A stretch of DNA of 64,000 nucleotides from an uncultured delta proteobacterium (GTDB taxonomy: Bacteria > Myxococcota_A > UBA9160 > SZUA-336). The DNA lies in contig CAVPHD010000003.1 of NCBI GenBank assembly GCA_963704165.1, forward strand, positions 448,001 to 512,000. Reading direction: 5' to 3'. The notes beneath the pieces were generated by a model, which had not been told where the DNA came from, made no database searches, and saw only the letters and a list, made by a program, of their open reading frames with translations. Below, piece by piece: positions 1-18,232 of the stretch (its first letter is position 1; each line of letters begins with the position of its first letter). The translations under genes and the position numbers were made by a program.

Positions 1-401
1 CCAACGCCCGCCGGGACGCGCGAAGCGAGCGCATTCACGAGTTGGACGAGCCTGGGCTCCACCTCGGCCCACGTGAGGTCCGTGCGCACCAGCCGCATGC
101 CGCAGTTGATGTCGAAGCCGATGCCACCCGGCGAGATCACCCCGTGATCGGCATCCATCGCCGCGACACCGCCGATCGGAAAGCCGTATCCCCAGTGCGC
201 GTCGGGCATGCAGAGACTCGAACCGACGATCCCGGGCAGCGTCGCGACGTTCGCGGCTTGCACGAAGACCTGGTCGTCCATCGCCTGGATGAGCTTCTCG
301 GTGGCGAAGAGCCGCACCGGCACGCGCATGCCGTCGCGAAAGCCCTTCGGGAGCTCCCACTCCGCGGGTCCAACACGAGCGAGTGTCGCAGGGGCGCTCA
401 T
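1..401 (-). CDS. rtcB: RtcB family RNA ligase (5' part; runs off window)
   Basis: Not in the ORF track; translated by hand from ATG at 401: [37 protein letters not shown]...[19 protein letters not shown]...[14 protein letters not shown], the RtcB signature motifs. ATGA overlap with the upstream gene's stop. Confidence 0.95.
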
Positions 402-2065
402 CGCGTCGTTCCCGGGCGCGCCACCCGTGGGACCGGCTCGCCGAGAGCGAATTGCTTCGCGGCCTCTTCGACCGCCGAGCGCCAGCTCGCATCGTCGGTG
501 CGGACACGCGTGCGCGCCTCGGCGGGCCACTCGTCCGGCGGCTCCCAACTGGCCGCGCTCGAGGCGTACAACTCGGGACCGGCGTCGGAAGGGTCCCTGC
601 CCTCCGCGGCGCGCGAGGCGAGTCGAGCTCGAGCGACCGACTCGGGGCAGGTCGACTCCAAGAGGAATGGACGGAGCCCGCGATCGGAGGCCCAGGCGCG
701 AAGCTCGGTGCGGAAGCCCGCACCCGCGTAGGTCGCGTCGAGGATCGCGACTCGGCCCGAGCCAACGACCACGGCGGCGCGCTCGAGCATTCCGGCGTAG
801 GTCGCCTCGCTACGCTCCTGCGTGTAGATCTCGGAATGGCCGCGAGCGGTCACGGGCAGCTCCGCCTGCCGCTTGCGCACGCGGTCCGAGGCGATCACGA
901 CGCCGCCGGTCGCATCGGCAAGAGCCTGCGCGACGGTGCTCTTGCCCGTGCCGACGATCCCGGCCATCGCGACCACGCTGCCGATTCGCGGCTCGACCAG
1001 CGCACCTTCGGCGAGCGTCAGGTGGCGCTCGCCGCTCTCCTCCGCGCGCGCGCGCTGTTCCGCCGGAACGAGCGCATCGCGCGCGGCCAGACAGGCGACC
1101 TTGGCGCGCACGGCGGCGCGGTACGCGATGAAGAAGTCGACCACGCCATAGAGGTCGAAGTCGTCGCTCGCCTCCGCGTAGCGGCGCAGGAATCGCTCGG
1201 CCAGATCCCGCCGCCCCCGGTATTCGAGGTCCATCGCGAAGAACGCGACCTCCGAGGCCGCGTCGATCTGCCGGTAGTCGTCGCGGAACTCGAGGCAGTC
1301 GATCGCGAGCGGCGGGGCCTCGTCGCGCTCGAACCAGACATGAGCGAGGTGCAGGTCCCCGTGGCCGTCGACGATGCGACCCTCGACGCGCCTGCGCTCG
1401 AAGCGCTGCGCACGACTTCTCAGCAGGAAATCGGCGCGGGCACCGGCCTCAGCAGCGCGCGAGGCGAACGAGGCGCCGCGTCCGACCTCCGAGAACGATT
1501 CGCGCACGGGGGCGCCGACCCGCGCGAGCCACGCCGCCGGCGAGAACGGGGCCGGTGCACCAAGACCGTTCTCGGCGTGAAACCCCGCGATCCGAGTGGC
1601 GACCGCGTCGATGTGGTGTTCGCGGAGCGCGCCACGCTCGAGCATCGACAACGCGTCGCCGCCGTCGGGCAGGCGTCGCATCACGACGCAGTGTTCGGCC
1701 TCGCGACCATCGGGCCCCGGCGGAGCGAGATCCTCTCGGATCGCTCCGAGCCGGACGACCCCGGCGTCTCGCTCGATGGGCGCGACACCGAGATACACGT
1801 CCGCCGCCAGGCGGCGGTTCAACCGCACCTCGCGCAGCGAATCGGCATTTCGCAGCGCACGGGTCGAGAAGTCGACGAATCCGAACCGCACCGCCTTGTG
1901 CAGCTTGTAGACACGCTCCCCCGTCAGAAAGACGTGGGAGAGATGCGTCTGTATCTGCACGATGCCGCGCGCGCCGCTCGGGTCGTCGGGGTAGGCGTCT
2001 CGATTCGCCAGACGCGCAACCAGATCCGGTTCGAGCGGCTCCACGGGATCATCGTCGCATGTCAT
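398..2065 (-). CDS. Bifunctional aminoglycoside-phosphotransferase-like / AAA_33 P-loop kinase (Rv2004c-like)
   Basis: [27 protein letters not shown] and IDCLEF kinase-fold motifs; C-terminal GIVGTGKS Walker A, ILDATY, DPSDA. Confidence 0.88.
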
Positions 2066-2405
2066 GAAGGCACCGAACCCGCAAGCTTCGTGCCGTCGGC
2101 GACACGCCCCTTGCAGTCCCTGCTGAAAGAGAACGAGCCTACCGTGCCTCGAGTCGGCGAGTCGAGCGCTGGATCGCCAAGCCGAGGACCGAAGGGAATC
2201 GACTCGTCGACGAACCCGACGACGATGCGCACTCGGTCAATCAGCCCCAACTGTGGCGGCGGTGCCTCGATCGGTGGCCGCTCACGCTCAGCGAGAGCAG
2301 ATCGTCGTGCTGTGTCGCAAGGGCACGGAGCCGCGCTTCCGCGTCCGCTTTCCGTGCATCCGAAACCGCTTCCATGTGATCCCAGTGGATCTCGAGTTCC
2401 GGCAC
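2062..2405 (-). pseudogene. Probable remnant of an HPF/RaiA-like ribosome-associated protein
   Basis: GGAGG RBS plus GTG at 2405 gives MPELEIHWDHMEAVSDARKADAEARLRALATQHDDLLSLSVSGHRSRHRRH, then an early stop at 2241. A second frame continues to a stop overlapping the kinase start. Family assignment is from recalled resemblance only. Confidence 0.4.
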
Positions 2406-2449
2406 CGTGCACCTCCGCGACACAGCGAAACTGCCTCGACCGGATTCGG

Positions 2450-2465
2450 TGCAACTACCGTTCCC
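2450..2465 (-). promoter_or_regulatory. sigma54 (-24/-12) promoter candidate for HPF remnant-kinase-rtcB
   Basis: Minus strand GGGAACGGTAGTTGCA = GG-N10-GC with TTGCA, about 45 nt upstream of GTG 2405. Confidence 0.55.
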
Positions 2466-15794: not shown

Positions 15795-15909
15795 CCGGAT
15801 TCGCATGCGCTACGGATGCCGTGGATTCGCCAAGAACGTGTCAATTTGGCACGATGAGGCATTGGTGCGCATATCCGGCGTGCGGTCTGCCCGGATCGGC
15901 GGATTCGTC

Positions 15910-15925
15910 TGGCATGGCCTCTGCT
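15910..15925 (+). promoter_or_regulatory. sigma54 promoter candidate for response regulator-usp
   Basis: TGGCATGGCCTCTGCT = TGGCATG-N4-CTGCT; predicted TSS lies very close to ATG 15939. Confidence 0.55.
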
Positions 15926-15938
15926 ACTTGGAGCAAGG

Positions 15939-17342
15939 ATGGGAGAACCTCGGACGGTCCTGGTCGTCGATGACGAGCCGGCGATGCGAGAGATGCTGGT
16001 CTCACTCCTCGAGGAGGAGGGCATCCGAGCGCGCCCCGCGGGCAACGCGGATGAGGCACTCGAGGCCACGCGAGATACCGATTTCGACGCCGTCGTATCC
16101 GACATCCGCATGCCGGGCCGCGATGGGATCGCGCTGCTCGCCGAGCTGCGCCAAGAGCGCCCCGACACCCCGGTGATCCTGATGACGGCGTTCGGGAGCA
16201 TCGACTCCGCCGTGGACGCGATGCGCAGCGGCGCCTTCGACTACATCACCAAGCCGTTCAAGCGGGGCGCGGTGCTCGCGTCTCTCGAGCGGGCGTTCGA
16301 GCGACGCGCCCTCGAACAGGAGAACCGCCGGCTTCGGCGGGCCCTCGACAAGACCTCCGCGTTCGGCGACCTGATCGGCGCGAGCCCCGCCATGCACGAG
16401 ATCTTCGCCTTGATCCGGAAGATCTCGAGCAGCCGGTCGAACGTCCTGATCACGGGGGAGAGCGGTACCGGCAAGGAAGTGGTCGCGCGCACGATCCACT
16501 TCACCGGTGCGCGCGCCCAGGCGCCGTTCGTCCCGATCAACTGCACCGCGATGCCCGAGGGACTGCTCGAGAGCGAGCTCTTCGGCCACGTGCGCGGCGC
16601 CTTCACGGGCGCCCACGCGACCAAGCGCGGGCTCTTCGAGGAGGCCAACTCCGGCACGATCTTCCTCGACGAGATCGGCGACATGAGCCCCGCGTTGCAG
16701 AGCAAGCTGCTGCGCGTGCTCCAGGATCAGGAAATCCGGCCGGTCGGGGGCAACAAGGCCGTGCACGTCGATGTGCGCGTGATCGCGGCGACGAACAAGG
16801 ACCTCAAGAAGGAGATCAGCGAGGGCCGCTTCCGCCAGGATCTCTTCTACCGCCTGAACGTGATCGCCATCCACATCCCTCCGCTCCGCGAGCGCCCGGA
16901 GGACATCGCGCCGCTGGCGTTGGCCTTCCTCGAGCGGCACGCCGCGAACCGGCGGGTCTCTCTATCGCGCCCCGCGCTCGAAGCCCTGAAGCATCAACCC
17001 TGGGAAGGCAACGCGCGAGAGCTCGAGAACGCCCTCGAGCGCGCCCTGCTGCTCGCCTCGGACGACGAGATCCAAGTCTCCGACCTGCCGTCGTTCGGCG
17101 ACTCGCCGCGAGCCGACGGAGACTCGGATCGGCCGGAGCGCGGCCTGCTCGCGGCAGCCGTCGAGAAGCAGATGTCCCTCCGGGAGCTCTCGGATCTCTA
17201 CACCCAGCGGGTTCTCGACCTGGTTCACGGCAACAAGGTGCGGGCAGCTCGCATACTCGGCATCAATCGGCGTACCCTGTACAGGCGCGGCGAAACACGA
17301 CAGCGTGAGGCAGCGCGCAACGCCAGCAGGGAGACAAAATGA
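15939..17342 (+). CDS. NtrC-family sigma54-dependent response regulator (REC-AAA+-Fis HTH)
   Basis: [69 protein letters not shown]. Confidence 0.95.
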
Positions 17343-18232
17343 TGCAGATCAAGACGATCCTCGTCCCGACCGACTTCTCGGAACACGCGGAGAAGGCGCT
17401 CGAGACGGCTGGAATCCTGTCCAAGCCGTTGGGGGCGACGATCCATCTGCTCCACGTCCTGCATCTGCCCGTGCAGGCCGTGACTCCCGAAATGGCCGTG
17501 GTGCCGGTCGGCTTCTGGCAGGATTTGCGAGCGCACGCCGAGCGAAAGCTCGACGAGTCCCGCAAAGCGATCGAGAAGCAGGGCGTGCGCTGCGCGACCG
17601 AGGTCGTCGAGGACATCCCCGGGTTCGCGATCGCGGCTGCCGCCAAGCGTGCGAACGCGGACCTGATCGTGATGGGAAGCCGGGGCTTGACGGGCATCAA
17701 GCACGCGATTCTCGGCTCGGTTGCGGAGCGCACCGTGCGCAGCGCTCCGTGTCCCGTGCTGACCGTGAAGCAGGACGACAGCGGCGCGCTCCGGCTGCGG
17801 ACGATCGTCGTGCCGATGGATTTCTCGCCCGCGTCGCATCGCGCGCTCGACTTCGCCAAGGAGCTCGCCAAGGCGGCAGGACCGGCGCACCTGATCCTGG
17901 TGCACGCGTACTACGTCCCGATCGAGCTCGAGCAGTTCTTGATCCAGCAGGGCGATCCGGTCATGGAACGACTTTCGGAGAGCGTGACGAAGGACCTCGA
18001 GAAGATGCTCACCGGACTGCAGGACGCCGGGATCTCGTCGGAGTACGTGGCGAGCCGAGGCGCGCCGGAACGTCTGATCGTCGAGCTGGCCAAACAGAAG
18101 CACGCCGATTTGATCGTGATGGGCACGCACGGTCGCCGAGGGCTGACGCACCTGCTGCTCGGCAGCGTCGCCGAGCGGGTCGTACGCACCGCCGACTGCG
18201 CCGTCATGACGGTGCAGGAGAAGAAGGGCTGA
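17339..18232 (+). CDS. Tandem-domain universal stress protein
   Basis: Two USP domains, each with MG(S/T)xG...LGSVAERxVR. Confidence 0.93.
   Translation: MMQIKTILVPTDFSEHAEKALETAGILSKPLGATIHLLHVLHLPVQAVTPEMAVVPVGFWQDLRAHAERKLDESRKAIEKQGVRCATEVVEDIPGFAIAAAAKRANADLIVMGSRGLTGIKHAILGSVAERTVRSAPCPVLTVKQDDSGALRLRTIVVPMDFSPASHRALDFAKELAKAAGPAHLILVHAYYVPIELEQFLIQQGDPVMERLSESVTKDLEKMLTGLQDAGISSEYVASRGAPERLIVELAKQKHADLIVMGTHGRRGLTHLLLGSVAERVVRTADCAVMTVQEKKG

Follow-up and report, generated by a model that had tools for sequence, protein, structure and literature searches.

This locus raises the question of which regulator governs a cluster of dormancy-type genes in an uncultured member of the Myxococcota, and to which signal it responds. 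The cluster (the island) reaches into the left end of the window, a 64,000-nucleotide stretch of DNA (G000:C3:448001-512000) from a source genome of 3.87 Mb. It includes a globin-coupled histidine kinase (14017..15303, plus strand; PF11563+PF00512+PF02518) and an adjoining sigma-54 enhancer-binding response regulator of the GAFTGA type (15939..17342, plus strand; PF00072+PF00158+PF02954). A preliminary description of this DNA had placed a whole DosR-like set of effectors under a globin/sigma-54 circuit. Our analysis, in which gene calls were named by Pfam and NCBIfam profile searches, favours a reading that we regard as fairly likely: kinase and activator, a conserved pair, would signal directly and switch on part of the island, together with a probable nitric oxide (NO) reductase, at low oxygen. 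The sequence itself shows the gene set, the conservation of the haem ligands and of the promoters, and a promoter phasing of 10.5 bp; from these we infer the remaining steps of the mechanism, oxygen sensing and low-oxygen induction included.

The conserved pair and its promoter code

An orthologue of the kinase, full-length or split, was found in 27 of 40 relatives, and in a sample of the phylum it occurred in 12 of 21 genomes of the same class vs 2 of 99 others, the latter two matching the globin part only; the activator has an orthologue in 31 of 41 genomes. Synteny was counted in 25 fetched relatives' loci of up to 20 kb each, many of them cut by contig ends. The kinase was accompanied by the activator in 24 of these, an adjacency that spans seven families, by a universal stress protein (USP) gene in 22 and by a CBS gene in 21. 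For the other island genes the counts were Hsp20, 9; APH-like kinase, 8; BCAM0308 family, 8; pcm, 5; cbpA, 5; acs-pdh, 2; and rtcB, 0, the rtcB gene of G010 being present but further off from the kinase locus. On these counts the conserved core is kinase-(CBS)-activator-USP and the remainder is fluid. The comparison of related genomes thus upheld the pair with its USP and CBS genes, and the DosR-like effector set does not travel as a conserved block.

The region between the activator and the divergent CBS-pair gene (15270..15734, minus strand, start uncertain; PF00571 x2) carries a sigma-54 site for each: one at 15778..15795 (minus) for the CBS gene and one at 15909..15926 (plus) for the operon of the activator and the tandem-domain USP gene coupled to it (17339..18232, plus; PF00582 x2). 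Two tandem 17-bp dyads common to both promoters lie at 15837..15871 (scores 13.4 and 11.5), and these promoters are the top two composite sites of the genome. Each of the 19 relatives compared has a sigma-54 site upstream of the activator, at a distance of 26-42 bp. In 18 of them motif search also found two copies of the dyad, TGnG(g)C-N5-G(c)CnCA, placed near -76 and -57 or one helical turn beyond; its motif score was 514 vs 241-255 in five shuffles. The acs-pdh operon has a sigma-54 site at 9124..9141 (minus; score 16.4), present likewise in G007 and G010, and a predicted activator dyad at 9189..9205, 66 bp from the sigma-54 GG (score 7.4, or 6.1 with a model from other genera), which at the same distance scores 8.0 in G007 and 15.2 in G010.

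A strict scan for tandem dyads picked up the two regulator-side promoters, a single weak site and nothing else (0 in a Markov control), and single dyads were scanned for thereafter. In the genome scan, sigma-54-like sites with a dyad 52-91 bp upstream were counted, with a decoy window as control. The source genome had the dyad at 7 of 12 island sites vs 8 of 685 elsewhere, and the decoy window gave 0 of 12 and 7 of 685, respectively. Without the two regulator-side promoters, 5 of 10 island sites kept the dyad (p 2e-7), and with the model from other genera the top five of 697 sites all lay in the island. In relatives, regulator promoters excluded, 57 of 244 sites had the dyad vs 13 decoys, at distances of 54-58, 64-69, 75-78 and 83-90 bp, which correspond to a period of 10.5 bp (R 0.71). 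The promoters that bear it there belong to Hsp20 (5 of 10 copies examined; the window's own copy, with its decayed sigma-54 site, is one of those that lack it), CBS, USP, cytochrome c, ferritin-like, acs (3 of 3) and ccoNO genes. A GAFTGA activator, -24/-12 promoters and phased upstream dyads, the features of a sigma-54 enhancer-binding protein regulon, are thus all present. These data indicate that the regulon is real; its kind is already known, and its wiring and DNA site are its own.

The best composite site outside the island (C7:172582) precedes an operon for a haem-copper oxidoreductase with a CuA subunit and haem o synthase. The operon (G000:C7:172582-180859; L055:4505-12859) also includes a cytochrome b/FeS/FlpD fusion, and its haem o synthase is fused to DUF420. 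Subunit I is closest to ba3 but has Gln in place of the ba3 active-site Tyr; identification as a ba3 oxygen reductase was dropped because this cross-linked Tyr is absent. The operon probably encodes an NO reductase of the eNOR type, an assignment over bNOR or sNOR that depends on our taking Gln to be the eNOR residue. B-family-derived enzymes without that Tyr are NO reductases, and eNOR required growth under microoxic conditions (PMC11214002). The promoter dyad of this oxidoreductase type occurs in G000, G007 and G008. For cbb3, relatives have the dyad at ccoNO (G009) and at a ccoN-like start (G005). The A-family oxidase and the qNOR of the source genome were not among the composite-promoter matches; the qNOR-type NO reductase gene lies at G000:C4:207464, with a GerE-type regulator adjoining.

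Enhancer and sigma-54 promoter tie the activator to several island operons, but the claim that the whole DosR-like set stands under the globin/sigma-54 circuit was not supported. No composite promoter was found in relatives before the APH-like kinase (0 of 11), hpf (0 of 2), pcm (0 of 8), cbpA (0 of 7) or rtcB (0 of 2); cbpA has no sigma-54 site in the window. The APH-like kinase has a sigma-54-like site (2079..2096, minus; score 13.1) without dyad (best -4.2), as in G007 and G010. The genes from acs to archease lie on one strand with short gaps, and a strict sigma-70 and terminator scan reported no promoter and gave terminators at chance level, none of them between acs and rtcB, so that read-through would be possible. 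A sigma-70-like promoter of the kinase with a TTGAC -35 element (13979..14006, plus) was read by eye, the strict scan not having reported it; by eye, too, TTGAC stands at a like distance before the kinase in 16 of 20 loci.

Probable wiring and sign of the proposed oxygen switch

The kinase has haem ligand His96, Tyr43 and phospho-His212. His96 and Tyr43 are present in 120 of 120 homologues and align with His99 and Tyr45 of AfGcHK, namely His(F8) and Tyr(B10). The distance from haem-His to phospho-His is 116 residues in 104 of 106 homologues vs 84 in NmpU of Myxococcus xanthus, and the linker was modelled as one continuous helix (129-231).

The preliminary description had likened the pair to NmpU/NmpR. 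With the M. xanthus nmp locus located via a published primer, reciprocal matches, trees and DNA site all spoke against this identity. NmpR ranks 8th of 45 M. xanthus matches to the activator, the best being another protein, and the reverse search with NmpR placed C11:102402 first and the window activator fourth. The window kinase is 26% identical to NmpU, which was absent from 34 M. xanthus matches to the kinase core, NmpS coming fourth in a near tie. In a quick tree, whose deep branches are weak and in which several long branches were flagged, the kinase core belongs to a clade of 33 rows (SH-aLRT 99) apart from NmpU and NmpS; the activator clade in a second quick tree, its deep branching likewise weak and from which 18 near-redundant loci and rows with <400 aligned residues were omitted, comprises 21 rows (support 100) apart from NmpR. 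The NmpR box GCGCA-N5-TGCGC was not found at 15780-15940, where one match had two mismatches. NmpT as query gave generic receiver matches only, in the source's own genome. No NmpS orthologue was found in the 41 genomes, which are incomplete; the best matches to an NmpS query were the window kinase's own core (best E 4.5e-45, with one full-length weak match at 39%).

By architecture the window kinase is nevertheless the counterpart of NmpU: the genome encodes no other protoglobin, and no other protein there matches NmpU over its full length. It shares with NmpU and AfGcHK the protoglobin-HisKA-HATPase layout with its haem His, and the two circuits have in common an autoregulated sigma-54 activator, CBS, USP and cbb3 targets, and a G-n-G-N9-C-n-C frame in the DNA site. 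They differ in that the window dyad is unlike the NmpR box and repeats at 18-21 bp, NmpS and NmpT are missing from the window system, the linker is 32 residues longer than that of NmpU, and the kinase gene is preceded by a sigma-70-like promoter where nmpU is under the control of NmpR. NmpRSTU ties a globin kinase, sigma-54, CBS, USP and cbb3 together under hypoxia, and its USP has been compared with M. tuberculosis dormancy USPs (PMC11841059). A record titled Comamonas sp. (L098), possibly mislabelled, carries nmpU and nmpS about 90% identical to those of Myxococcus.

In G037 and G039 the globin kinase was not found, and a kinase of the same core clade with a FixL-like PAS domain instead (E 2e-23 to FixL) adjoins the orthologous activator and the dyad. 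Kinases with this core and PAS sensors, the FixL-like ones of G037 and G039 included, stand beside the orthologous activator at L047:5537-6649, L046 near 9579 and L049:8403-10418. In the FixLJ-FixK circuit a haem kinase active without oxygen drives cbb3; the present circuit resembles it in its cbb3 targets and in this FixL-like sensor, and differs in that the partner is a sigma-54 activator, not FixJ, and the sensor in most genomes is a globin. Direct wiring is probable, given that neither kinase nor activator is the orthologue of its Nmp counterpart, that the search for NmpS yielded no orthologue, and that a FixL-like PAS replaces the globin on the same core. With oxygen bound, FixL is inactive and AfGcHK active, the Fe(II) form of AfGcHK being inactive (PMC8697598). 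The predicted cbb3 and NO-reductase targets, the FixL-like swap and the lack of an inverter make a globin kinase that would be active without oxygen, opposite to NmpU and AfGcHK, the simplest reading. Linker register can invert engineered kinases (PMC11164954), and our guess is that the longer linker does so here.

Several observations weigh against this account. In the globin kinases that have been characterised, oxygen is the activating signal: AfGcHK (PMC8697598) and, as modelled, NmpU (PMC6211767). Within the window the dyad is absent at the APH kinase-rtcB, hpf, Hsp20-USP, pcm and cbpA promoters, and it stands directly before the APH-like kinase in 1 of 27 genomes only (5 of 27 within about 1.5 kb). 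Scored with the model from other genera, the acs dyad drops to 21st among 697 sites, and sites were picked with a motif model that included same-genus genomes, kin not being independent. The oxidoreductase dyad was present in only 2 of 9 relatives' loci and not seen in 7, several of them cut by contig ends. The activator occurs without this kinase next to it in G019, in G030 and in one copy of G025; the globin kinase orthologue of G025 (L044:3003-4229), a genome with a second activator copy, has lost the proximal His and the distal Tyr. G005, G008 and G010 each have a lone receiver gene close to BCAM0308, and the source genome is only 84% complete.

The best-surviving alternative, which we consider unlikely, is that the kinase is switched on by oxygen like AfGcHK. 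The regulon would then be a response to the arrival of oxygen, with pyruvate dehydrogenase, repair enzymes and oxidases as its products, or an unrecognised inverter or phosphate sink would reverse the signal as NmpS does. The behaviour of AfGcHK cited above, the alignment of Tyr(B10) and the proximal His with it, the aerobic metabolism of acs-pdh and the lone receiver genes that three relatives have near the island are in its favour. It is opposed by the targeting of cbb3 and a probable NO reductase but not of the A-family oxidase, by the FixL-like swap on the same core, and by the NmpS search, whose best hits were this kinase's own core.

Less probable still is that the same direct circuit works with NO, carbon monoxide (CO) or haem redox state as its signal instead of oxygen. 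The best off-island target lacks the Tyr of oxygen reductases and so would reduce NO (PMC11214002), the genome also has a qNOR, and DosR responds to NO and CO; on the other hand, Tyr43, the oxygen-stabilising position of AfGcHK, is invariant, and relatives have cbb3 targets.

We find it improbable to a further degree that the activator's regulon is real but its main input comes from another kinase, with the globin kinase a mere neighbour and the DosR-like genes gathered by unrelated regulators. The separation of activator and kinase in G019 and G030, the many DosR-like genes without dyad and the presence in the genome of other activators, four CRP-family and five GerE-type regulators over cut-off would agree with this, but adjacency holds in 24 of 25 loci and seven families, the kinase and activator clades match each other, and FNR-like boxes are not enriched (9 vs 9.8 expected). 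A chance collection without shared control, for which the highly variable gene order and two genes broken here might speak, can hardly be reconciled with the promoter enrichment and phasing or with the presence of the APH-like kinase in 25 of 31 activator-bearing genomes vs 2 of 10 others (kin not independent).

In the direct low-oxygen circuit that we favour, the kinase would be made constitutively from its sigma-70-like promoter. With haem free of oxygen it would phosphorylate the activator, and with oxygen bound it would rest or act as a phosphatase (ExxT motif). The activator would bind dyads whose distance to the sigma-54 GG is about 57, 66, 76 or 87 bp, raise its own expression and induce the CBS, USP, acs-pdh, ferritin-like, lipoprotein-LD-transpeptidase and respiratory genes. 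For the APH kinase-rtcB-archease block, transcription running on from acs or a different regulator may be the sole route of control.

Likeness to DosR and lxa

The DosR regulon includes USPs, an alpha-crystallin, a CBS protein, RtcB (Rv2631), an M50 protease (Rv2625c) and the ribosome hibernation factor Rv0079 (PMC5309233). The island has the same families, its hibernation-factor-like gene included; it differs in that a globin kinase and a sigma-54 activator stand here, several of the shared families being without an activator site. DosR itself is a NarL-type regulator with haem-GAF kinases, and the island has no GerE-type or GAF gene. We further assume likenesses to Rv2004c, Rv2630 and Rv1997; a literature search for Rv2004c as a phosphotransferase found none. 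Orthology to DosR effectors, which the preliminary description had raised, was compared for USP and CBS only, with a mixed outcome. The USP is of the same family as Rv2623, whose structures (presumably 2JAX and 3CIS) it matched at E 1e-14, ranked behind archaeal and Thermus USPs, and Rv2626c was not among 27 matches to the window CBS protein. For these two, the DosR likeness is at family level only.

The lxa locus of Burkholderia cenocepacia is a clustered 50-kb low-oxygen island whose authors note overlap with DosR (PMC3721108). USPs, Hsp20, cytochrome c and a cation ATPase are shared with it, and a BCAM0308-family gene over the NCBIfam cut-off lies just left of the window. The lxa locus differs in using a TGA-N6-TCA Fnr/Anr-like motif, which is not enriched in the window island (one match, inside a gene).

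The individual parts and the overall theme are thus already published (NmpRSTU, lxa, DosR). In a literature search that most subscription papers lay outside, no paper turned up that describes a globin kinase paired directly with a sigma-54 activator. As a tentative proposal, a class-wide lineage of globin kinases, switched off by oxygen, with a length-fixed helix 32 residues longer that sets the sign, interchangeable with a FixL haem-PAS and provided with its own enhancer code, might represent, besides DosR and Fnr/lxa, a third independent way of wiring a dormancy-type set, here with cbb3 and NO-reducing respiration. In characterised globin kinases oxygen switches the kinase on and a relay is needed to drive low-oxygen genes, and the direct pair with its natural FixL-for-globin swap would offer a simple bench test of how the sign of a sensor is set (linker register). 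With a defined DNA site, the regulon can be traced in many uncultured Myxococcota, and the re-wiring of DosR-type families to different oxygen sensors helps to pick out their shared core (USP, CBS, Hsp20, APH kinase).

Gene content of the island and its surroundings

Profile searches confirmed the coordinates of nearly all genes named in the preliminary description: RtcB, the P-loop kinase, ACP/pdh/acsA, pcm, the USPs, Hsp20, DnaJ/CbpM, the globin kinase, the CBS pair and the GAFTGA activator. The 5' part of rtcB (RNA ligase; 1..401, minus; PF01139, E 1e-163) enters the window, most of the gene lying to the left, where archease (PF01951) follows beyond the window edge. The APH-like + AAA_33 P-loop kinase (398..2065, minus), present in 27 of 41 genomes, has a matching AAA_33 part (PF13671); its APH half is without a Pfam match, and the label is based on motifs and on what we take to be an Rv2004c-type architecture. 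The gene at 2241..2423 (minus) is indeed a remnant, and its name, HPF-like (hibernation-promoting factor), is our assumption, the 60-aa piece having no Pfam match. It represents the 5' end of a 189-aa gene of G010 (64% identity), whose one recognised domain is a C-terminal cold-shock domain, and is cut by a frameshift and a deletion.

The M48 peptidase (BepA-like; 2455..3915, minus; PF01435), which overlaps the stop of the acyl carrier protein (ACP) gene, is followed by pdhA-pdhB-pdhC-ACP (3912..7345, minus; TIGR03182 and NF006667 over cut-off, PF00198, PF00550) and acsA, acetate-CoA ligase (7342..9108, minus; NF003313 over cut-off). Then come pcm, protein-L-isoaspartate methyltransferase (9363..10031, plus; PF01135, TIGR00080), a tandem-domain USP (10028..10900, minus; PF00582 x2), Hsp20 (10992..11429, minus; PF00011), cbpA-cbpM (DnaJ without zinc finger, and MerR_2; 11522..12753, plus; Pfam, NCBIfam) and a broken GspE/PilB-type ATPase in three pieces (12828..13966, plus; PF05157, PF00437), with about 350 bp missing relative to G007. 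This ATPase remnant stands between cbpM and kinase in G007, too, and near the island in G017. The preliminary description had mentioned neither the peptidase nor the ATPase, nor the portion of the island beyond the left window edge.

That part extends for about 23 kb and holds archease, the BCAM0308-family gene (NF040826 over cut-off), lipoprotein and LD-transpeptidase, CBS-DksA and ferritin-like genes, a third USP, formate dehydrogenase and NuoF-like subunits, a cytochrome c, a formate/nitrite channel, a P-type ATPase, a cardiolipin synthase-like gene and an M50-CBS protease. The single copies that the genome has of the RtcB, APH/AAA kinase, BCAM0308 and protoglobin genes are all inside the island, a gathering that is beyond chance. 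About 7 kb beyond the window's left edge, a tandem pair of ferritin-like genes (AurF/MiaE-like di-iron; L001:12968-14960) has a strong composite promoter upstream; frameshifted in this assembly, the pair recurs near the kinase in 5 of the 25 loci. An unannotated 87-aa coiled-coil protein (G000:C3:426053; L155, about 14053) has a top-ranked composite promoter upstream and the cardiolipin synthase-like gene downstream. Frameshifts are frequent in L001 and the window (P-type ATPase, ferritin-like, fdh and NOR accessory genes), which suggests assembly errors, so that a single frameshift is weak evidence of a pseudogene. On the right the island is bounded by an unrelated block, pstSCAB and phoU-phoB-phoR (18234-27125), in which no sigma-54 composite promoter was found and which abuts the island in 8 of the 25 loci, all of the same genus.

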